A stretch of 64,000 nucleotides of DNA from an uncultured delta proteobacterium (GTDB lineage: Bacteria > Desulfobacterota > Syntrophobacteria > BM002), in assembly GCA_963712115.1 (NCBI GenBank), contig CAVQGX010000009.1, forward strand, positions 1 to 64,000. Reading direction: 5' to 3'. The translations under genes were made by a program, and so were the position numbers. Under the pieces are notes generated by a model. It searched no databases. It was not told where the DNA came from and worked only from the letters and a program-made list of their open reading frames with translations. Below are positions 8,488 through 23,581 of this stretch, one piece after another; the first letter of the stretch is position 1; every line of letters starts with the position of its first letter.

Positions 8488-9034
8488 TCATTTATCTTTC
8501 TCCAGGTGGACCAGCTTCGCCCTATCCTCCTCGGACAGCTCATGCATCTTGTCAATCTCAATAGCCTTCCCCTGAAGCACGTAAACCAGCTGCTCGATGA
8601 AGCGCAGGCTGAGTAAAACCCCGCCAACCGGCACGGCCAGGTATCCTATCTCCATGGGCATGCGCAAATCTCGGGACAGGAGTTTGCTCCTGCTGATGAA
8701 ATGGGCGAATTCGAACCCTTTTACAGCCACAATTATCCCGAAAAGGATACAGAGGAGAATGGAGAGAATGAGGATGACTTTTCTGGACGTTCGGGTGGAA
8801 CTTCTTAACCAGGACGTCCACCCCGATGTGGATGTTCTCCCGAACCCCCAGACTGGCGCCAATAAAGGTGCACCAGATAAGGGCCATGATGGTGATCTCG
8901 TACGAGCCGCCCCAGCCGGTGCCGAACACATACCTGAGGATCACCTCCTGGAAGGTCAGGTAGGAGGCCAGAGCCAGCAGAATGATCACCAAAACCGTTT
9001 CGGTCTGGTTCCAGATCCGGATAATTAATTGCAT
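8488..9034 (-). pseudogene. dctQ: TRAP small permease DctQ, split by a +1 frameshift at 8779-8782
   Basis: N-half MQLII..VILRYVF..HIGVDVL in one frame, C-half VILILSILL..YLAVPVGG..LRF in another; removing one A from CAG AAAA GTC restores a ~181-aa DctQ. Confidence 0.85.
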
Positions 9035-10198: not shown

Positions 10199-11435
10199 CT
10201 ACCTGCTGGGTGGAACGAATTTGGCTGCGGCAAATTCAGGCGGCCAGATGGTCTGAAATTTGCCGTCAATGATCTGCAACACCAGGGTGCGGATGGTGTT
10301 CTGCCTTTCGAAACCTTCATATGAGTAAAAATTGACGGGACCAAAGGGGGTCATCATGTCCGTCTTTTCCAACGCCGCCCGTATGTCTTTGGGACTAAGG
10401 GATTCTGCCCTTCTCAGAGCATCCGCTGCCACCAGGACTGCTGAATAGGCCTCTGCGCCATGATAGTCGGGCTGCGAAGAAAAGAGTTTCACGTATGCAT
10501 CGAAATAATCCCTTGCGCCTGGATATAAGGCCCGCTCGGACCAGAGCGTTGCAGTCACCAGATTGATTGGCGGCATCTCCGGCTCTCTTGATGAATTCTT
10601 CCTGGGTAAAACCTCCGGCGGCTCCACAAAGCAATGATTTCAGGTTAGATTTCTGGATCTCCTTGACCAAGGTAACACCATCTTTGAGATAAGAAACCAT
10701 AAAGATCACGTCGGGGGGCTCTTCGGTCAGCTGGGAAAGCATGGGTTGGAAGTGGGCTGCGTCCGCTCCGTACCATTTGTCATAGTCAAACATTCCCCGT
10801 AACTCAATGCCATTATCCTTGCAAAACTCCAACATTCTGAAAGCGGCATTGGTCCCATACATGCCGTTTTCATGGATGATGGCCATGGATTTTGGTTTGA
10901 AATTCTTGAGCCAGAAATCTTCCAGCCCTCTGGTGTACTCGCTCACCGGGGGGTTCAACCGGAAGATGTTCTTCCAGCCCTTCTTAGTCAGCTTGTCAAC
11001 CGAAGCGGTGCTGACCAACAAAGGGACATTCAAGTCCTCTGCTACTTTGGCCATGGCGTAAGTGGGGTTGCTGGTCGCTCCCCCAAGCAGCATAACCACT
11101 TTGGAATCGCGAACCAGTTTCTCGACAACCTCCTTTGCCACAGAAGTCTTGTTCTGATCATCTCCGTAGACGATTTCCAACTGGCGCCCGTTTATGCCCC
11201 CCTCCTTGTTGATGGTTTCCTTGGCCATTTCACATGAATTCTTCATCATCAGCCCGAGAGTTTCACGATCTCCCGACAAAGGCAGGGGAACGCCGATAAT
11301 GACCGGCGATTTGCCCTCTGCCACGCTTTTGGCTGTTTCAGCGGTTTGCGCTGTAGCTGAATTGCGAACGGTTGAGAAAATGATGAACAAAGAGAGTGAA
11401 ACAAGAAGAAATAGCACCTTCTGCCTGTCTTTCAT
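10199..11435 (-). pseudogene. LivJ/K-like solute-binding protein, frameshifted at ~10560-10568
   Basis: Frame 1 ends ..KRAGDAANQ; frame 2 continues LVTATLWS..PDYHGAEAY..TPFGPVNF..LQIIDGKFQTIWP; junction GCC AAT CAAT CTG. Confidence 0.85.
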
Positions 11436-11484
11436 AACGTATCCTCCATCGCAGCTTCACAAAGCCTTGTGGATAAACAGCAAG

Positions 11485-11501
11485 AGCAACAACTGTTCCA
11501 A
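11485..11501 (-). promoter_or_regulatory. Sigma54 -24/-12 promoter of the SBP-TRAP-oad operon
   Basis: TTGGAACAGTTGTTGCT (GG-N10-GC) ~50 bp upstream of ATG 11435. Confidence 0.75.
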
Positions 11502-11574
11502 AGTTGATCCTCCGCTCCAAACCTCGAAACAGCGGGATATTAGCTTCATCCGAGCACATCGTGACCAGCAAAAA

Positions 11575-11615
11575 TCGGCCAATATCCGCCGGCAAATGGC
11601 GGAAATCCGCCATTT
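11575..11615. promoter_or_regulatory. Tandem palindromic enhancer (UAS) sites for an NtrC-type activator
   Basis: GGCCAATATCCGCC and AAATGGCGGAAATCCGCCATTT, 75-115 bp upstream of the sigma54 element; NtrC-family regulator encoded divergently. Confidence 0.55.
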
Positions 11616-11950
11616 AATCAAACGGGTTCGCCTTGTGATAATCGAACCAGGTTTCCTCCTAAGAGCTCGTATTTGCACCACATTATCTTTGTACGACACG
11701 ATTCACCCTTTCCAGGCTGACCGGATCATTGCTAGAAGAAAAGAACCCTGATCCTGGTGGTTAATTCAGTGTCTTTTCTAAAAGACGATGGTGCCAGGCT
11801 AATTTTTGGTATAGTTAATGAAGCATATCTTTTAGAAAGGCTGAAACGGGGGCGGTAATAATACGCCACTTATAGGGCGGTATTGAAGCCTAGGACATGG
11901 GATCTCAAACCTCCCATGCTCCTTGCCCCATGGTTGAAGGAGTTGAGAAC

Positions 11951-14900
11951 ATGCGTCTTCACTTCAGCATCTTAAAGAAGTTCGTTCTGGCCTTCCTTTT
12001 GCTCTCTATCTTGCCCCTCTGCGTATTCGGATTTTATACCACTCGCAGCGTTCGGCAGATCGGCCAGGGAGCCATTGCCAGCAGTTCCACCGAACTCGAA
12101 AAGCGCGGCAAAGAATCGATTGAACTTCGGGCGGTTGAACTGGCGAACCGGGTAAGTCAGTTGCTACGCAATCGTGAGGCCGATCTTCTTACTCTTCAGA
12201 TGATGCCGCGTGATGCTGTGGTCTATCAGCAATTTTCCCTTGCACATCGAGGAAGGATTTGGATACGAGAGGGGACCAATGAGAATCCCATTGAAGCTCA
12301 CAAAGAGATCCCCTTGTATCGGGAGGTTACTTTTATTGGCGCGGATGGCAGGGAAAAAATCCTTGTCAGAGATGATCAAATCGTGGGCTCTGAATTTCTT
12401 CGGGATGTGAGCGAGCCTGTAAACACAACCTATAAATGTGAGCGTTACTTTGAGGAAACCAAAAAATTAACAAAGGGTGAAATTTATGTTTCCCACGTAG
12501 CGGGCTGGTATGTGACCCGGGAAGAACAGCTCCAGGGTGCCGAGCGGGTTGAAGATGCGGTAGAGGGGAAGAAATTTGAGGGGGTGCTTCGTTTTGCGGT
12601 CCCTTGCTGGGCTAAAGATGGTCATTTCGAAGGGATTGTAATGCTTTCTCTCGATCATCGACATCTCATGGAGATGACCCAACACATTTTGCCTACGGAA
12701 GAACGGTTTGTTGTTTTTCCCAGTTATATGAGTGGCAATTACGCTTTCATGTTTGATGATGCGGGATGGATCATTTCTCACCCCAAGTTCTGGAATATCA
12801 GGGGAATTCTTTCGGACGGCAGCCAATTCAATGCCACTGATCCATCTTACACCAAGGAGAAAGTGGTGGCGGGTGAAGTTCCCTTTAATCTCGACTGCGC
12901 GGATTTTATTCATCCCAATTACCCTTTCATCGCTAGACAAGTACGGGCAGAAAAATCCGGGGTAACAAGCACCTTCAATGTGGGGGGAATCCCTCGCGTG
13001 ATGGCTTACGCTCCCATTTATTACGATCGGGGGCCTTACTCAAAGAATCGTATTTTTGGAGGAATCACCATCGGTGTTCAGACAGCCAAGTTCCAGGAAC
13101 CTGCCTTGCTCACCAGTACCAAGATCAAGGAAATGGTTCAGCAAACGAGGAATAGTGCGTCTGTCACCCTTGCGCTTGCAGCCCTTGTGGCCATCGGCCT
13201 CGCTGTTCTTCTCGCCAGGACCTTCACTCGCCCCATTTTGCTTTTGGCTCAGAGGGCAAAGGAGATCGCCTCAGGTGGCACTCCTGTCGAAGTAGAGGTG
13301 AAAACAGGGGATGAACTGGAAATCCTTGCCCATAATTTCACCCGTATGGCCAGGGAAATCAAAGAGCACCAGGAAAGCCTTGAAAAATCCCTCAATGAAC
13401 TCGCCGAATCCAAAGGGGCCGTAGAGCAATATACCATTGAGCTGGAAAAGCGGATCAAGAGCCTCAAAAATATCCATTACTTGAGTCAATATTTGGGGGT
13501 CGTTTTTGAACGGGAAATGGTACTGCAAACAGTTCTGAAGACCTGTGTGGAAGGGCTGGATTTCGATCGAGCCCTTTTATACCTTTATGATCCCATCAAC
13601 CGCCGTTTAATATGTCACCAAACGTTTGGATTTTCCCCGGAACACGAAAGGCGTGCCAAATCGGCTTCTTATGACATCGATAGACACGACTGTATTCCCA
13701 CCAAAGTATTCCGAGATGGGCAGACCATTTTTGTCAAAGATATCTATACTGAGGACTTGGCCACACCCCTGGACATCAAGATTTCAGAGGTGGGAGAGAC
13801 TTACTTCTATGCTTTCACTCCCCTTAAGGTTCAAGATCAGGTGATCGGGGTGCTGGGTGCCGACAATGCCACAAGTGAAAGGGAGATCACAGACATTGAC
13901 GTGGAATCCTTAGAAATCTTAACTAACGATGCTGCCCGCGCCATTGAGCGGTCACAGCTTTACCAACGGGTTATCAGTGAAAGAAACTTCATCGAGTCTA
14001 TCTTCACTCACATGACCAGTGGGATAATTACCCTTGATGAGAGTGGCAGTATCACCTCTTTGAATCCTTATAGCGAAAGAGTGTTTAGCCTGGACCAGAG
14101 GGAGGCAGTGGGTAGAGACTACCATCAGGTTTTTCACCAATACCCTTCATGGCTCGAATTGATTGAATCTTTTGCCCAATCTCCTGATGTGGAAAGGCAG
14201 TTTCTGGAGCATCAATTGAGTTCCAATGGCGCTCAGGAGAAATTTCTGGAGGTAAACCTGTCTCGCATTCACCAGGAAGAGCAGAGCCGACCGGTGCTTT
14301 TGATCTTTCTGAGGGACATCACTGAACGAAAGCTTCTGGAAAATCACCTGAGGCGTTCTGACCGTCTGATCAGCCTCGGTACTCTGGCTGCTGGTGTCGC
14401 CCATGAAATTCGCAATCCATTGACGGGCGTTTGTTTGCTCCTGGACGACCTACATGATCATCTGGCAGAAAGACCTCAGGAGCGAGAAATGATCCAAAAG
14501 GCTTTGTCGGAAGTGGAGAGACTGGAAAACCTGGTCAATGGCTTGCTCGATTTTGCTGCGCCCTCCAGACGGTTGCGTTTTGTAGTTCAGTCAGTTGAGG
14601 AGGTAATCAACAATACCCTTTTCCTCATCCAAGAACAGTGCAAAAAGCAGAAGATTAGTATAGCCGTTCAGGTTGCCGAACCCCTTCCACCTCTGCACCT
14701 AGACCCAGACCGATTTCGACAATCCCTTTTGAACCTGCTTTTGAATGCTATTCAGGCCATGCCAGAGGGAGGAGACCTTTCTTTACATGTGGACCGAGTG
14801 TTGGAAGACCAGTCGCTTGTTTCAGGTCCCGCTGTTCGGATCCTCGTCGCTGACACCGGAAAGGGCATTCCCTCAGAAGACATAGAATATATTTTCGATC

Positions 14901-16537: not shown

Positions 16538-18075
16538 CCCTAATGTTGCATAAAAATCGGGTTTTTCACAAATAAAAGACTTGCGGAGGCCCATGGATAC
16601 TGGGTAAAAGTGTTTTTGGACAAGAAAACACAACCCGATCCAGGAGGCCACCGCAAGTGAAATCCAGCAAAGCACAAATTCAGGCAAAGTTCCACAAAAT
16701 TCCTACCATTCGTTTCGAAGACCAAAAGCTGAGTTCGTTTTCAGGGTTGGTGATATTTCAAGTGCTTTTTGTGCGAATGAACCTAAAGGAGCGCCTGAGA
16801 CGATGTTTCGCTCATTTGAAGATGTCACCGATCTTTGGACGCCACCTGGTTATCATGTTGCTCATCGTTCATCTTCTGCTTGGATTTCGCCGTCTTCGAG
16901 AGATCGACTATTACCGTGACGATCCTTTGGTTCTTCGCCTGTTGGGATTGCGCAAGCTTCCCGATTTTTCCACCATCTCCCGAGCTCTGTCTCAGATGGA
17001 AATAGAAGGAGTCGACAAGCTGAGAGCGCTCTCTTGTTCAATGGTTGTCGAAGGACTACAGCGAGAACAGTTTGCTCGCCTGACCTTGGATTTTGATGGC
17101 TCCGTGCTCAGCACCAAAGCGCATGCAGAGGGCACGGCTGTCGGTTTCAACAAAAGGAAAAAGGGTGCACGCAGTTACTATCCACTGTTTTGCAGCGTCG
17201 CGCAAACAGGCCAATTCTTTGACGTGCATCACCGCCCTGGCAATGTCCATGACTCCAATGGTGCCGTTGATTTCATGATGCGCTGTTTTGAAAAAGCACG
17301 AAGCGAGCTAGCGAATACCAGATTTGAATCGCGAATCGATGCAGCTTTCTTCAACAAGGAGATATTTGATGTCTTTGATACCAACAAGGTGCAGTTTACA
17401 GGCTCTGTCCCCTTCGAAAGATTTGCAGAGCTCAAACAAATGATTGAGGTGCGACAACGCTGGCGGATCGTTGATAGGCAGTGGTCATACTTTGAGGCCA
17501 GGTGGAAGCCAAAATCGTGGCAGACGAAATATCGGTTCATTTTCACTCGCAGAAGAGTTAAAAGCCAATATAAAGGCCCTTTGCAACTTGATCTGTTTGA
17601 ACCACGTGACTTCAACTACCAATATAAGGTTATCGTTACCAACAAAACCAACTCAGCCAAAAGCGTCGTGCTGTTTCATAATGGCCGCAGCTCCCAAGAA
17701 GCCATCTTCGGCGAGGCCAAAAACAACTGTGGCCTCAATGTCATTCCCACTCGGCGCTTGGCAGGCAACCAGGTCTATACCCTTTGCGCGATGATGGCTC
17801 ACAACTTAGCCCGAGAAATACAAATGCTGGCAAATCCACCCTTGCTGCGAGCTCGCCCGAAACGCCCCGCAGCTTGGAAGTTCCAAACTCTAGATACCCT
17901 CAGACACCGCTTCATTCAACGCGCCGGACGGCTCATACGACCCCAGGGCCAACTGACACTCACCATGAGCGCAAACCCAGCAGTTCGCAAAGATCTTCTG
18001 CACTTCTTGGAGGCAGTGCAAAAGGCAGCTTAGAAGCAAAATCGACGTAAACCAGATTTTTATGCAACATTAGGG
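16538..18075 (+). mobile_element. Complete IS1380-family insertion sequence (1538 bp)
   Basis: Perfect 21-bp TIR CCCTAATGTTGCATAAAAATC (26/27 when extended); TTAA duplicated on both sides within AGTTAACT. Confidence 0.92.
16657..18033 (+). CDS. IS1380-family DDE transposase
   Basis: LSSFSGL, LTLDFDGS, SYYPL, RPGN.HDS, RIDAAFF, HNGRSSQEAIFGEAK, MAHNL motifs; GTG start after GGAGG. Confidence 0.92.
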   Translation: MKSSKAQIQAKFHKIPTIRFEDQKLSSFSGLVIFQVLFVRMNLKERLRRCFAHLKMSPIFGRHLVIMLLIVHLLLGFRRLREIDYYRDDPLVLRLLGLRKLPDFSTISRALSQMEIEGVDKLRALSCSMVVEGLQREQFARLTLDFDGSVLSTKAHAEGTAVGFNKRKKGARSYYPLFCSVAQTGQFFDVHHRPGNVHDSNGAVDFMMRCFEKARSELANTRFESRIDAAFFNKEIFDVFDTNKVQFTGSVPFERFAELKQMIEVRQRWRIVDRQWSYFEARWKPKSWQTKYRFIFTRRRVKSQYKGPLQLDLFEPRDFNYQYKVIVTNKTNSAKSVVLFHNGRSSQEAIFGEAKNNCGLNVIPTRRLAGNQVYTLCAMMAHNLAREIQMLANPPLLRARPKRPAAWKFQTLDTLRHRFIQRAGRLIRPQGQLTLTMSANPAVRKDLLHFLEAVQKAA

Positions 18076-19658: not shown

Positions 19659-20300
19659 CTAGGTTTCTTCCGTGGTTGCCATTTCCCAGAATAAGTATTC
19701 ATATCGCGCTGTTATTAAAAACAGCTCTTCCATTCTTCGTAATTCACGTTCAGGTTTGCCTGTTGCCAACTCATTTATAGTGCTACTTAGCCAGTTTACA
19801 AATTGTTGAAATTCTTCATTCGTCCAATTATCAATAAAGTCCTGCCAGGGACTTTGGATTTTCAAATTATTTCTGACCTCTATCCAGGAATCCAGATAGG
19901 CTTTTTCAGCAGCGTAAAGTACCGTAAAGCCCTCTGCAAATGAACTATTGTAAGCGGTACTCATCAAGAATTGATTATAACTATAGCAAGTTGGAGAGGG
20001 CATCACATCTTCTAAATTAACCCCGCGAGCAGAGGCATTTTTTCGAAACAGTTCCAACTCTCGATCCAGACCAGAGAGGATTTTAATAAAGATCGGCCTC
20101 AGATGAGAAGGCGCCTTTGCCAACAGCACTGCAACAAAAGGGATTGCTTCTTGCACAAAGACATAGTCCTGCTGTATCCAAGTTCTAAAAGCCTTATCTG
20201 AAATACTCCCCTCGGCTGTCATTTTAAGAAAGCGGTGATTCAGAATGGCATTCCATATATCTTGCGCTTTATCTAGTAATCTTTGATGAAAGTTACTCAT
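19659..20300 (-). CDS. TenA-family protein lacking the catalytic Cys (TenA_E type)
   Basis: WIQQDYVFV, LYAAEKAY in place of LPC, YEYLFWEMA; GGAGG SD. Confidence 0.88.
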   Translation of the reverse strand: MSNFHQRLLDKAQDIWNAILNHRFLKMTAEGSISDKAFRTWIQQDYVFVQEAIPFVAVLLAKAPSHLRPIFIKILSGLDRELELFRKNASARGVNLEDVMPSPTCYSYNQFLMSTAYNSSFAEGFTVLYAAEKAYLDSWIEVRNNLKIQSPWQDFIDNWTNEEFQQFVNWLSSTINELATGKPERELRRMEELFLITARYEYLFWEMATTEET

Positions 20301-20739
20301 AAATAACCTCCTTTGATTTAGTCTCGATGTTGGGGTAGATCGCGGTCATCGAGGATGGCAGGCCATTTTGCCAACTTGTTAAAGCTTGAATAAGTTGTGG
20401 TCTGAAAAAGCATATCCAAACCTAAAGACCTTCAGGTGATGTCACACCTGTTTTGTTTTCCGAGGTGAGAGGAATGGCTTGCTTTGAAACTTCACATCAG
20501 ATCGTTGTAGAAATCCGACGAGAGCAAGAGGAAAGTACATATGACATCGAAAGGCCAGGATTCGCTGGAGCAAATTTACCACAAAATCTGGAAAGGGCGC
20601 AAAGCGAAATCGCTCGCCTCAAAATCTTCGAGGATCGAGGGCGGGTGACAAGAATGTCAGAATGGTGTTATTTGCAGTCGAGGAGGGTTGGTGGGAAATT
20701 TAAACCTATAACGCCTATAAGGCCTCCTCTTGTCAACGG

Positions 20740-21170
20740 ATAAACGTCTCCCAGGAACGAAAAAGTTCTTTTTTCGTCAAACAACTTTGATGATGCCGTA
20801 ACAAGGCTCAGCGTTCCGATTTTGTTTCCCGATCAGGTTTGCAGATACCGTGTCTGCACCAAACGCCTATTGAGGGTCATCTCCCGCTCAATGCGGGAGC
20901 ACGGGCCCAGTTGCATTAAGGCCCGCACTTAGAAATCTATCCGTACCCGTATGCCGGCCCCTTCGATATGGCGGGCTCAGGTGAGTCACCAGTCCCAGTT
21001 ACTGTGTGGGCTCGGGGACGGAGCAGAACACGGAAACCACTGTACCGACATCATACTTATATAAACTGACTGGGGCCAGGGTGTGTGTCCAATCGCTTTA
21101 GAAGGGCTCGACAGACTGTCCCTGTCATGGTCCAGTTATAAGTAGGGCTCACACACTCCGCCCCAAGCTT
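20740..21170 (-). ncRNA. Putative bridge/seek RNA in the IS110 3' non-coding end
   Basis: Repeated GAGCCC-N10/12-TGG units in stem-loops; segments match the IS junctions (AAGCGAT, ATAGGCGTT); ends approximate. Confidence 0.7.
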
Positions 21171-22217
21171 TTAGGCTGCACTGAGAAAGATGTCCATATC
21201 GAAAGCTTCCCTTCGCTTGAGCATGAAGTAGACAGCACGGCCGAGCTTGTGGGCTAAGATGCTCAGAGCTTTGCCCTTGCCGTGTTTTCTGACCAGACGC
21301 TTGTGATAGTGCTGGGCTCGTTGATTATCTATCAAAAAGCAAACAGCGGCTTCTGAGAATGTCCACTTGAGATGAACGTTGCCGATCTTTTTGTTTGTGG
21401 TGCCCTGCTTCTTTCCTGCCGACTCCCTGGGACATTTGACCAGACGACAGTAGGAGACAAAGTCCTGCACCTTGGGAAAGCGACTGATCTGGTGGATTTC
21501 GTACAGAAGCATCAGAGCGAGAATCTTGCCAACTCCGGGAATCGTTTGCAGAAGATCCAATACCTCAGGGTTATGATCTCTGGCTGTTCTGAGAATATAG
21601 AGTTCAACATCCCTGAGCAGGCCATCATAGAAATCGAGTAACTGAAGGTCCACCTCGATGCTCTTGTTGGCACTGGGATCTGGAAAATGCTCTGCTACTC
21701 CTTGACGATTGCATCTGGAGGTGATTGCTTTGGGTAGTGGAGGAAGATTGTATTGACTGTTGGTGTTGTGAATGTGAGTGAGCAGCTCGGCGCGTTTGCG
21801 CTTGAGGTAGTTGCGCCGGCGCAGAAGATCCCGGGTGGAGCGCATCTGTCTAGGATAGACATAGGAAACGGGAAGTGTGCCTCCACGCAAAAGAATGGCA
21901 ATCTTCTTGGAATCGATCCTGTCGTTCTTGCTCTTGCCCCCATGGATGGCTTTCATGTAAAGAGCATGGCCCAGAACAAAGGGAATCGCCTCCTCGCTAC
22001 ACAGATCTGCCAGCCAGTACCACATGAATATGCACTCAACCGCAACAACGATGTCCTCACGGTACGGTGCAATGACTTTCAAGAATGATTCCGCTGAGGC
22101 TTTCCTGTTTCCGTGGAATAGAGTTTTGCCCGCCTGGTCCAGAATGCAAATGTACATGCTCCGGGCGTGAAGGTCGATTCCGCAGTAATACTTGTGCTGT
22201 TTGGTGTAAAATCTCAT
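21171..22217 (-). CDS. IS110-family DEDD recombinase/transposase
   Basis: GIDLH, VAVE, KNDRIDS (DEDD), TIPGVG, RESAGK catalytic Ser, KIGN..LK; start ATG 22217 after AAGGAGG. Confidence 0.95.
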   Translation of the reverse strand: MRFYTKQHKYYCGIDLHARSMYICILDQAGKTLFHGNRKASAESFLKVIAPYREDIVVAVECIFMWYWLADLCSEEAIPFVLGHALYMKAIHGGKSKNDRIDSKKIAILLRGGTLPVSYVYPRQMRSTRDLLRRRNYLKRKRAELLTHIHNTNSQYNLPPLPKAITSRCNRQGVAEHFPDPSANKSIEVDLQLLDFYDGLLRDVELYILRTARDHNPEVLDLLQTIPGVGKILALMLLYEIHQISRFPKVQDFVSYCRLVKCPRESAGKKQGTTNKKIGNVHLKWTFSEAAVCFLIDNQRAQHYHKRLVRKHGKGKALSILAHKLGRAVYFMLKRREAFDMDIFLSAA

Positions 22218-22822
22218 AGGGCTTCCTCCTTTGAGTGTAAGTGGTTTGTGGCGATAAACCACATATTACACTTCACTGGAGGAGGCCTTTATAAGTATCG
22301 CTTAAGCTTGAATTTGTGTTAGGCCAACGAGTGCAGATATGATGAGAAGATCTTAACTTTTCACGGATGCTTTGGACTCAAGATAAATAGCAGTATACTT
22401 AACTTGGGCCTGACTAGTGAATACCACTACCTATTGTGGTACCTAGCGACATCTTAGAACACGAACTTGCGAGTTTAACCGTCACTTTATATTTCGGATT
22501 GCTACTCGGCCTGAGTCTGGACTTCTTGATGGGCGGTAAGTCGTGACAACTTGTCAGGAGTAAACTTTTCAAAAGGGTACAAATTGTGAGTATACGCAAT
22601 CAGTAAGCTGCGTGCGAGACAATAAGCATCATCATCTACCTTTCACTAGATTGGTAGGTTTTATTGGTATTTGAGGTGGATGATATTTGGGGAGTCCCAC
22701 AAGCGATCAAAGGTTTTGACAAGTCAGATTTTTGTGAGGTAATTTTTTAACTTGTCTCCATTTTGACAAACTTGCCTAGGGGAACTTACTAACTTATGTA
22801 CATCAGGACCAAAGGAGATTCT

Positions 22823-23581
22823 ATGTTAAACAAATTACAAGGGAAGGTTGCAATTGTTACTGGTGGAGGGAGAGGCATAGGCAGAGCGATTGCAGAGGCT
22901 TATGCTAACAATGGGGCAAAGGTAGTTGTTACTGCCGCTATACAAAAAGATGAAATAGATGAAACGGCATTAAAAATAAATGGCAAGGCAATCTTAGCCG
23001 ATATTACCAAACCAGGTGATGTACAAATGTTAGTTGGCTCTGTTATTGTCGAGTTCGGAAGAATTGATATTTTAGTAAACAACGCAGCAAGAGGTATGAG
23101 ATTTGTCAATGAATCATTTATGACGGAGCCAAAGCCATTCTGGGAAGCAGACGCCAGTAACTGGCAGATGGTAATTAATACAAATGTCAACGGAACATAT
23201 CTGGTTACAAAAGCAGTAATTCCTCAAATGTTGAAACAGAAGTTTGGCCGAATCATTAATATTTCAATTAATCTTGAAACAATGAAACGTATAGGATTTT
23301 CACCCTATGGCCCTTCCAAAGCCGCACTGGAATCAATGAGTGTTATCTGGGCACAGGAATTGGCCGGAACCGGAATTACCCTGAATATCTTATTGCCGGG
23401 CGGAGCTACACTCACAGGTATGATCCCCCCGACTTTTCCCGAGGATAAAAAACAAGATTTGTTGAAGCCCGATATTATTGCACCTGCAGCCGTTTATCTC
23501 GCTTCTAATGAAGCTGAAAATATCAATGGGCAAAGAATAGTAGCTGTTGAATGGAACAAAGAACACGGAATAAATAAATAA
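22823..23581 (+). CDS. Short-chain dehydrogenase/reductase (FabG-like)
   Basis: TGGGRGIG, NNAA, YGPSK; start ATG 22823 after AAGGAG. Confidence 0.92.
   Translation: MLNKLQGKVAIVTGGGRGIGRAIAEAYANNGAKVVVTAAIQKDEIDETALKINGKAILADITKPGDVQMLVGSVIVEFGRIDILVNNAARGMRFVNESFMTEPKPFWEADASNWQMVINTNVNGTYLVTKAVIPQMLKQKFGRIINISINLETMKRIGFSPYGPSKAALESMSVIWAQELAGTGITLNILLPGGATLTGMIPPTFPEDKKQDLLKPDIIAPAAVYLASNEAENINGQRIVAVEWNKEHGINK

Follow-up and report, generated by a model that had tools for sequence, protein, structure and literature searches.

Bridge and seek RNAs underlie a new class of programmable recombinases, and the mechanistic model of these systems has so far rested on IS110-group RNAs that have two loops. 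The 64,000-nucleotide (nt) window analysed here (contig CAVQGX010000009.1 of an uncultured delta proteobacterium, assembly GCA_963712115.1) carries on its minus strand an IS110-family element whose non-coding end had been read, from the sequence alone, as encoding a guide RNA with three repeated loop units instead of two. The locus raises the question of whether a third unit is really part of such an RNA, and what it could be for. We found that the non-coding region probably encodes the bridge (seek) RNA of an IS1111-type element within the IS110 family, with three modules, of which module 1 reads the target and module 3 the donor. Module 2 is a real, conserved third module and departs from the two-loop layout; the hints that it pairs with DNA are weak and mixed. 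What is new is a three-module structural variant of a known RNA-guided recombinase system.

Modules 1 and 3 as candidate target and donor guides

The element is about 1.59 kb long, and both of its junctions carry a CG core.

20712..22300, minus strand: whole IS1111-type element, including both CG core copies (cores at 22300-22299 and 20713-20712)
21171..22217, minus strand: recombinase (transposase, tnp) gene of 348 amino acids (aa), from the open reading frame (ORF) list; stop codon 21173-21171

The recombinase matches the Pfam domains DEDD_Tnp_IS110 (PF01548, 3.8e-15) and Transposase_20 (PF02371, 2e-18), both in excess of the curated cut-offs. About 445 nt of non-coding sequence lie 3' of its stop codon, against about 80 nt 5' of its start, which bears out the placement of the units 3' of an IS110 recombinase gene. 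There is no ORF of at least 50 aa inside this 3' non-coding region; a plus-strand ORF (20453-20743) overlaps the last ~30 bases of the element. With its subterminal inverted repeats and the long non-coding stretch after the gene, the element has the IS1111 layout as described in PMC11187229 and PMC11208160, and by its domains, layout, repeats and site- and orientation-specific insertion it belongs to the IS1111 group of the IS110 family.

Homologs came from two sources. A scan of species-representative genomes gave 68 loci with 41-75% protein identity (the top value being that among full-length matches), in metagenome-assembled genomes labelled Desulfobacterota, Binatia, Nitrospirota, Acidobacteriota, Gammaproteobacteria, Spirochaetes, Bacteroidales and others, and one metagenome scan detected 586 relatives, 80 of which were retrieved. 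A near-full gene was present in 116 loci, and 62 had both junctions within the retrieved DNA and recognisable by anchors. Leaving out three with dubious or cut left flanks (L012, L086 and L120) gave 59 elements, of which 55 were non-redundant at <93% non-coding identity. Loci without both junctions were excluded from the covariation analysis and used for the module 2 model search. We write LT and RT for the left and right target flanks, LD and RD for the left and right donor arms, and U1a and U1b (and so on for the other units) for the 5' and 3' loop strands. In the covariation test, elements were anchored on the core, and loop columns were compared, ungapped, with the element's own DNA and with the DNA of other elements; the permutation results for modules 1 and 3 refer to the 55 non-redundant elements.

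Every motif listed by the sequence-only reading is present on the minus strand where it had been placed. By itself the motif is not beyond chance: exact copies of GAGCCC-N7-AACTGG occur twice in the 64-kb window, both within the non-coding region, and with up to two mismatches there are 7 matches against 5.5 expected. It is conservation and covariation that establish the units. In the common module, the internal loop lies between an outer stem and an inner hairpin and has two strands, one 5' and one 3'; the CC of GAGCC pairs with the GG of the closing (U)GG, and the GG of AACUGG with the CC of the second GAGCC.

21072..21164, minus strand: module 1, putative target-binding loop (outer stem 21164-21150 with 21087-21072)
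21147-21146 with 21089-21090, and 21133-21132 with 21104-21105, minus strand: CC:GG clamps of module 1
21145-21134 and 21103-21091, minus strand: 5' and 3' loop strands of module 1
21150-21145, 21144-21138 and 21137-21132, minus strand: motifs GAGCCC, TACTTAT and AACTGG
21109-21104, 21103-21092 and 21091-21089, minus strand: motifs GAGCCC, TTCTAAAGCGAT and TGG
21156-21151 with 21087-21082, minus strand: closing pair GTGTGT/ACACAC

Of the 18 pairs in the outer stem and clamps of module 1, 16 show changes on both sides in at least two sequences, and pairing holds in 92.4% of 983 cells. Its loop strands follow the target DNA of their own elements. U1b had 2.80 positions identical to its own LT-8..-2 against 1.72 for the DNA of others, and U1a complemented 3.82 positions of its own RT3-9 against 3.34 (0 of 5000 permutations as good in either case). 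In six-column windows, U1b matched LT-7 to the core in the same sense with z up to 9.8, and U1a complemented the core to RT8 with z of about 5.5. The longest exact run of U1b reached at least 8 nt in 15 of the 55 elements, compared with 2.2% of non-cognate pairs. In the window element, U1b (CUAAAGCG+AU) reads against ..TAAAG-CG-AT.. in four of five sites, and U1a reads against G-TTATAGGT with nine consecutive pairs, one of them a wobble. U1b continues two bases beyond the core, AU corresponding to RD1-2, and these bases are invariant in both RNA and DNA. Module 1 thus behaves as the target loop of a seek or bridge RNA, its strands matching opposite target strands on either side of the core. 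TACTTAT in the 5' strand was considered as a copy of the left flank and rejected, as the diverged copy of the element on contig C54 of the same genome breaks that pattern and the segment complements the right flank; the apparent left-flank match arises because TTATAA is near-palindromic.

20859..20941, minus strand: module 3, putative donor-binding multi-loop (covariation with element ends)
20941-20931, minus strand: 5' strand of module 3 (ATAGATTTCT region), complementing RD
20930-20927 with 20876-20873, minus strand: clamp of module 3 (93.2% of 220 cells paired)
20926-20881, minus strand: two variable hairpins
20872-20862, minus strand: 3' strand of module 3, followed by TGG at 20861-20859
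20924-20920, 20919-20913 and 20912-20907, minus strand: GGGCC, TTAATGC and AACTGG, motifs as first drawn for unit 3
20898-20892/20887-20881, 20878-20874 and 20873-20862, minus strand: CTCCCGC/GCGGGAG, GACCC and TCAATAGGCGTT, likewise as first drawn

The units as first drawn hold for modules 1 and 2 and for the 3' half of module 3, while the 5' half of module 3 had been mis-assigned. GGGCC-TTAATGC-AACTGG was rejected as that half: it falls in the first of the two variable hairpins, aligns to variable hairpins in homologs, is lineage-specific and gave no covariation signal, and among the motifs first drawn for this unit the 3' half (GACCC-TCAATAGGCGTT-TGG) is the only conserved part. Pairing predicted across the clade consists of one 4-bp clamp with two variable hairpins between its strands, and module 3 is therefore a multi-loop. 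U3b had 4.95 positions identical to its own LD-7..-1 against 4.53 for others, and the redefined U3a (20941-20931) complemented 4.22 positions of its own RD3-9 against 3.64 (again 0 of 5000 permutations each). The window scores were z = 10.7 for U3b in the same sense as LD-7 to the core, and z of 6-7 (6.9) for U3a as complement of RD1-9. Column 20938 complements RD6 in 35 of 55 elements (14.7 expected), column 20867 equals LD-2 in 48 of 55 (26.4 expected), and the longest exact run of U3b is at least 8 nt in 35 of 55. In the window element, U3b AUAGG-CG-UU reads against ATAGG-CG-TT; the strand continues two bases past the core, UU corresponding to RT1-2, and these bases too do not vary in either RNA or DNA. 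Once its 5' strand is redrawn, module 3 behaves as the donor loop, its strands matching the ends of their own element.

The lineage of the window element also offers a case of natural retargeting. Its LT, core, RT and LD differ from those of relatives, and U1a, U1b and U3b carry matching changes, so that core, both flanks and donor arm have changed along with their guides. Five independent insertion sites of this lineage share ..(T)AAAG-CG-TTATA.. (59 homolog junction pairs were aligned), and its core is CG where that of almost all relatives is TG. The proposal that this end of the element encodes a multi-loop guide RNA is thus borne out by covariation of module 1 with both target flanks and of module 3 with both element ends, and the clade yields a worked-out guide map of an IS1111-type RNA for both target and donor, the donor module being a multi-loop.

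Put together, these comparisons probably give the following arrangement. In the sense of the recombinase, the integrated element reads LT-core-RD, tnp, non-coding region, LD-core-RT, and the ~300-nt stretch 21164-20859 folds into three modules. The 3' strand of module 1 equals the left target flank, the core and AU, the first two RD bases, with its 5' strand complementary to the last core base and the right target flank. The 3' strand of module 3 equals the left donor arm, the core and UU, the first two RT bases, with its 5' strand (20941-20931) complementary to the core and RD. Module 2 is a paralogue of module 1 that has kept the stems, the CC:GG clamps and, of the loop, only the crossover-adjacent bases; its distal bases drift. 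The data show the boundaries of the element, the structure of the three modules and the guide roles of modules 1 and 3. By analogy with the handshake guides described by Hiraizumi et al. (2024, PMC11208158), the two-base AU and UU extensions may be handshake-like, and the RNA would be transcribed and bound by the recombinase.

As described for IS621 (PMC11208160, PMC11208158), a DEDD recombinase is here combined with an RNA from the element's own non-coding end; internal loops have two strands that pair with opposite target or donor strands around a shared core, and short extra pairings fit the recombined product. Unlike in IS621, the RNA lies 3' of the gene rather than 5', the order of the loop strands is reversed and the donor bases sit in a multi-loop; the 2-nt extensions that match the product belong to the left-guide strands (3'), the first position of the core is soft, being T, G or C, and there are three modules where the archetype has two guide loops. 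The IS1111 seekRNAs of ISEc11, ISPa11, ISKpn4 and ISPst6 (Siddiquee et al. 2024, PMC11187229), as described there, likewise come from a non-coding region downstream of the gene in elements with subterminal inverted repeats, have the top-strand match 5' of the bottom-strand match, and are naturally retargeted through guide changes. Their reported lengths are 82-96 nt for short and 145-172 nt for long forms (PMC11187229; PMC13604230 Table 1), whereas the structured region here is about 300 nt and has a second target-type loop. Donor bases in a multi-loop are stated for many IS1111 orthologues by Durrant et al. (2024, PMC11208160). The searched text of this literature held no description of a conserved third target-type loop; its figures and supplements (long seekRNA folds, the Durrant covariance models) may depict one.

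Several observations weigh against reading the region as a guide RNA. The matches of U1b are modest: with the register fixed they cover 2.8 of the 7 distal positions, and every element has at least two mismatches over LT-8..-2; such modest flank identity fits mismatch-tolerant insertion into diverse sites together with some register slippage in an ungapped comparison. The fold of the single sequence is only weakly better than that of shuffles (z = -1.97), and a search of Rfam with positions 20000-23000 returned 0 matches at E up to 1. Contigs of metatranscriptome run X20 fell only inside tnp (21499-21715, 217 nt), together with a 46-nt piece of the left flank, and are uninformative on the non-coding region.

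A conserved third module

20946..21022, minus strand: module 2, conserved third module shaped like a target-binding loop (structure counts and covariance model)
21022-21018/20950-20946, 21015-21013/20956-20954 and 21010-21008/20960-20958, minus strand: outer helices of module 2
21007-20998, 20997-20973 and 20972-20962, minus strand: 5' loop strand ACACAGTAAC, inner hairpin and 3' strand GCCATATCGAA
21013-21008, 21007-21001, 21000-20995 and 20978-20973, minus strand: motifs GAGCCC, ACACAGT, AACTGG and GAGCCC

In 54 sequences, 84.3% of the cells of module 2 are paired, compared with 73.1% in shuffles. The covariation score was 0.317 against 0.148; none of 500 shuffles reached 0.317, and slid controls had a maximum of 0.130. 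Pairing reaches 98.9% and 96.3% in the two outer helices, where UA/GC, CG/UA and UA/CG exchanges occur. A covariance model of module 2 gave one match per element in 47 of 50 further homolog loci that had not been used to build it, and no match in the other three (L100, L116 and L032). In the window element's own genome, it had three matches, each inside a copy of the element. Module 2 is also found in relatives on plasmids of Vibrio campbellii and Alteromonas macleodii (49-56% protein identity), and the model had no match in a 34%-identical Pseudoalteromonas relative. The stems and the proximal loop bases differ at 0.06-0.17 per site (pairs being 70-93% identical), against 0.24 for the whole region; the conserved proximal bases are ..CUAAC in the 5' strand and UUUGA in the 3' strand, which in the window element read GUAAC and AUCGA. 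The suggestion of three units rather than two therefore stands, as all three modules are kept across the clade and homologs do not conserve two alone. A further GAGCCT that had been noted near 20805 is present (20809-20804) and is kept only in the closest relatives.

The clade is widespread in sediment and soil bacteria, with ~100 elements examined, and the conserved third loop is a feature that the two-loop model leaves unexplained.

Three side observations concern the layout of the modules. In five homologs (L077, L080, L082, L088 and L105), ~560 extra nt including an ORF lie between modules 1 and 2, with module 2 beginning ~765-769 nt past the stop codon rather than at ~200 nt as elsewhere; modules 1 and 2 are therefore separable by cargo or a nested insertion. 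Five other loci (L173, L178, L179, L182 and L184) are solo right-end remnants, with unrelated sequence in place of the gene and modules 1 and 2. In L173, L179 and L182, module 3 is followed by the TTGAC box, the subterminal repeat and the donor arm; this part is degenerate in L184 and unrecognisable in L178. The non-coding region of the 34%-identical relative, on a plasmid of Pseudoalteromonas xiamenensis (L164:2000-2400), has three GARCC-N10-13-TGG motifs, of which, by eye, the first matches the element's own left flank and the third its own right end. From these motifs, the three-module layout may be wider than the clade.

Candidate roles of module 2

We analysed whether module 2, like modules 1 and 3, follows the DNA of its own element. 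Some observations hint that it does. The first core position is C in U1b, U2b and U3b of the window lineage alone, accompanying CG at both junctions, and is T in 53, 54 and 54 of 55 relatives, respectively. The longest exact run of U2b to its own left junction averaged 4.58 against 4.28 for others (7 of 5000 permutations as good), with 154 of 5000 permutations as good for the core-anchored run. The flank is closer to U2b than to U1b in 6 of 59 elements, with runs of 8 against 5 nt in L015, 9 against 8 in L024 and 7 against 6 in L033.

Other results speak against DNA pairing by module 2. At fixed register, 514 of 5000 permutations were as good for U2b against LT, 2545 for U2a against RT, 3183 for U2b against LD and 3178 for U2a against RD. 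The expectation that the variable segments covary with insertion sites and ends was therefore borne out for modules 1 and 3 and not, at fixed register, for module 2 (ACACAGT and GCCATATCGAA). Compared with the R''-L'' partner arm of the attC sites described below (35 elements), module 2 did not rise above noise (z of 4.1 at most), and compared with the remaining non-coding columns and the left end it gave self-matches only. Its distal loop bases differ at 0.36-0.38 per site, and hairpins at 0.37; the distal target guide of module 1 differs at 0.53. A scan for module 3 strands with a non-T core base found L180 and L177, where U2b keeps UG although GG stands in U1b, in U3b and at the right junction (in L180 at both junctions); L181 has CG in U3b only. 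The first core base of module 2 therefore covaries in one of three lineages. The weak signal between U2b and the flank could also come from shared ancestry or from gene conversion between units 1 and 2.

The reading that we put forward, tentatively and at somewhat below an even chance, is that module 2 is a third recombinase-binding loop that pairs only with invariant crossover-proximal DNA (T-TG-A, G-TTAG). It would be a second, low-specificity target-type loop in cis; in excision or direct strand transfer, it could hold either a resident junction or the core site of a generic attC. Precedents make such a loop mechanistically plausible. In CazIS110-1, an RNA with a target loop only is described as cooperating with the full bridge RNA and transferring the LT-RD junction to a new target (bioRxiv 10.1101/2025.10.25.684509), and an IS621 preprint describes half-match recombination. 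The second loop of CazIS110-1 is, in that account, a truncated copy of the same target loop on a separate, more abundant RNA, whereas module 2 is diverged, in cis and placed between the target and donor loops.

A more specific version, which we consider rather unlikely, is that module 2 is a working third guide loop with its own recombinase dimer, pairing with the same invariant crossover DNA and allowing alternative synapses. A target and a donor loop would then give insertion, and two target-type loops, or a target-type and a donor loop, would give excision or direct transfer; another use for module 2 could be the initial capture of any attC core site, with the flank then checked by the specific loop. 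If true, this would be a natural three-loop bridge recombinase architecture, with separable generic and specific reading of the target. Should the third loop bind protein or DNA at all, it would bear on the balance between excision, insertion and direct transfer and on the engineering of such RNAs.

A serious alternative, though we judge it somewhat improbable, is that module 2 never pairs with DNA and is instead a protein-binding or folding scaffold, a processing signal or a recombinase decoy that limits transposition, its conserved bases making protein or tertiary contacts. This would account for proximal bases that stay UG in the GG-core lineages while modules 1 and 3 follow the DNA, for distal bases that look neutral and for null results in all fixed-register tests. 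The proximal bases GUUUCU in the 5' strand of module 3 are kept despite two standing mismatches with the DNA, and the conservation of loop bases is therefore not only about pairing. Such a role does not explain, however, why the conserved bases of module 2 are exactly those able to pair with the invariant crossover DNA, why the CG-core lineage changed U to C in module 2 as well, or the weak excess of own-flank matches.

That module 2 is a second, fully programmable target loop, making the element dual-target, is distinctly improbable. The earlier idea that the extra unit specifies a second target is disfavoured by the lack of covariation at a fixed register, hairpin-like drift and a predicted site not enriched in the host genome; the two other earlier ideas, that it assists excision or is a scaffold, are both plausible. 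Module 2 does share its architecture and proximal bases with the target loop, U2b does surpass U1b in a few elements, and the register-free signal is present. But the distal bases drift at the rate of hairpins, module 2 does not covary with LT or RT at fixed register, and all five independent insertion sites of the window lineage match unit 1, not unit 2. The predicted module 2 site, with up to three mismatches, and its reversed control had 24 matches each in the own genome, in a search that was uninformative even for module 1 (20 against 81 for the control); in the L022 genome, the counts were 3 against 8 for the module 2 site and 6 against 15 for the module 1 site.

It is very improbable that the GAGCC, AACTGG and TGG repeats are recombinase binding sites at the level of DNA and not parts of an RNA. 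The motifs do resemble the subterminal repeat (GAGGCC) and recur three times; however, the stems keep pairing through double changes that include G-U intermediates, a signature of structure in a single RNA strand, the variable segments track flank and end sequences strand-specifically, and published IS1111 and IS110 elements are described as using RNAs from the non-coding region (PMC11187229, PMC11208160). Hardly credible at all is a chance or recent duplication in this copy without function. The loose motif does show no enrichment in the window, but conservation of units 1 and 2, and of unit 3 in its 3' half, extends over ~100 elements of many phyla and as far as 49% protein identity.

Element boundaries, copies and target sites

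22298-22290, minus strand: right donor arm (RD) ATACTTATA, 9 nt separating the left repeat from the core
22279..22289, minus strand: left subterminal inverted repeat AAGGCCTCCTC (inverted repeat of 20729-20719; same arrangement in homologs)
20719..20729, minus strand: right subterminal inverted repeat GAGGAGGCCTT, after TTGACA and before the left donor arm
ending at 20714, minus strand: left donor arm (LD) ...ATAGG, between the right repeat and the core
20757..20778, minus strand: A/T-tract hairpin GACGAAAAAAGAACTTTTTCGT, a possible transcript 3' end (seen in the sequence; similar hairpins in many homologs)

The boundaries were set by comparing junctions. A copy on contig C29 of the same genome is 99.7% identical, and identity between the copies ends at the junctions, at ...AAG-CG-ATACTTATA-AAGGCCTCCTC on the left and GAGGAGGCCTT-ATAGG-CG-TTATA... 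on the right. Contigs of three other metagenome runs exit the element at 22303 into three different flanks, each with ..TAAAG before CG. In two metagenome runs, 22299 is joined straight to TTATTATGTAAAC or TTATAATGTAAAC, as in unoccupied sites; the unoccupied form downstream of 22299 in other metagenomes is TTAT(T/A)ATGTAAAC, and a paralogous unoccupied site lies at C31:~156315 of the own genome. From the copy comparison, the flank-switching contigs and the unoccupied sites, the element proper therefore runs from 22298 to 20714 (minus strand) with a CG core at each junction. An empty-site pattern built by joining both flanks had 0 matches in the own genome; the unoccupied sites came from BLAST of the flanks and from metagenome contigs. 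Joints of the circle-junction type were absent among the metagenome contigs matched to the element.

The subterminal repeats are 11 bp (AAGGCCTCCTC and GAGGAGGCCTT), within the 7-17 bp of the IS1111 group, and stand 9 and 5 nt back from the core. TTGACA lies just before the right repeat (20736-20731), and TTGAC is kept in the right ends of homologs; following the published IS1111 model, this suggests the -35 box of a junction promoter. A promoter and terminator scan of the non-coding region found nothing exceeding shuffles, and the terminator scan did not call the hairpin at 20757..20778, which is a possible transcript 3' end by its sequence.

The target of the window lineage is AT-rich (..TAAAG-CG-TTATAA..) and adjoins a short palindrome, with no clear partner arm at its own copies. 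CGTTATA[AG] shows no enrichment, as the genome holds 117 occurrences where its length alone predicts ~299, and the target is therefore not a high-copy repeat. Most homologs appear to sit in integron attC sites, inserted at the TG-TTRRRY core site: 37 of 59 elements have an upstream arm that starts RYYYAAC (R''-L'') and complements the left flank, and the right flank starts TTRRRY. Stop codons just before R'' in several flanks (judged by eye) suggest insertion in sense orientation to the cassettes. The IS1111-attC group described in PMC3001079 and PMC13604230 (ISPst6, ISPa21, ISKpn4) likewise occupies attC sites. As reported, however, its members (ISKpn4, ISPst6, ISPa25) insert at AA-CG, 11 nt before GTTAG (PMC13604230 Table 1), near the attC 5' end and antisense to the cassettes (PMC3001079), whereas here insertion is at the core site itself, (T/C)G-TT. 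Insertion at the integron crossover point is relevant to the disruption or mobilisation of cassette arrays.

The window element's own genome encodes an integron integrase (G000:C27:2356-3300; TIGR02249, 486.9 bits, cut-off 265). The host therefore has an integron, while the element family targets attC sites. In 12 of 59 homolog junction pairs (e.g. L005, L073, L091 and L106), the right junction is GG, with TG at the left junction and in every guide; either a mismatch is therefore tolerated at the first core position or this base comes from the target. The diverged relative on contig C54 (~11217-12878, ~75% nucleotide identity) has a TG core and thus shares its genome with the CG-core element; its left flank resembles a GC-rich attC (..GTCCGACTGCAGCGAGT-TG), and its right junction is GG while its own guide has UG.

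Elsewhere in the window, a 458-aa ORF (16657-18033, plus strand) looks like the DDE transposase of another insertion sequence. The DNA to the right of the element (window 20700-20300) belongs to a small family of similar intergenic sequences, with G000:C3:~8570-8850 and C31:~156230-156420, whose members contain GTTATAATGTAAAC...CATATAAC, a short palindrome, together with the repeat ATACTTTAATCTAAACTTT, copies of which lie on >20 contigs.

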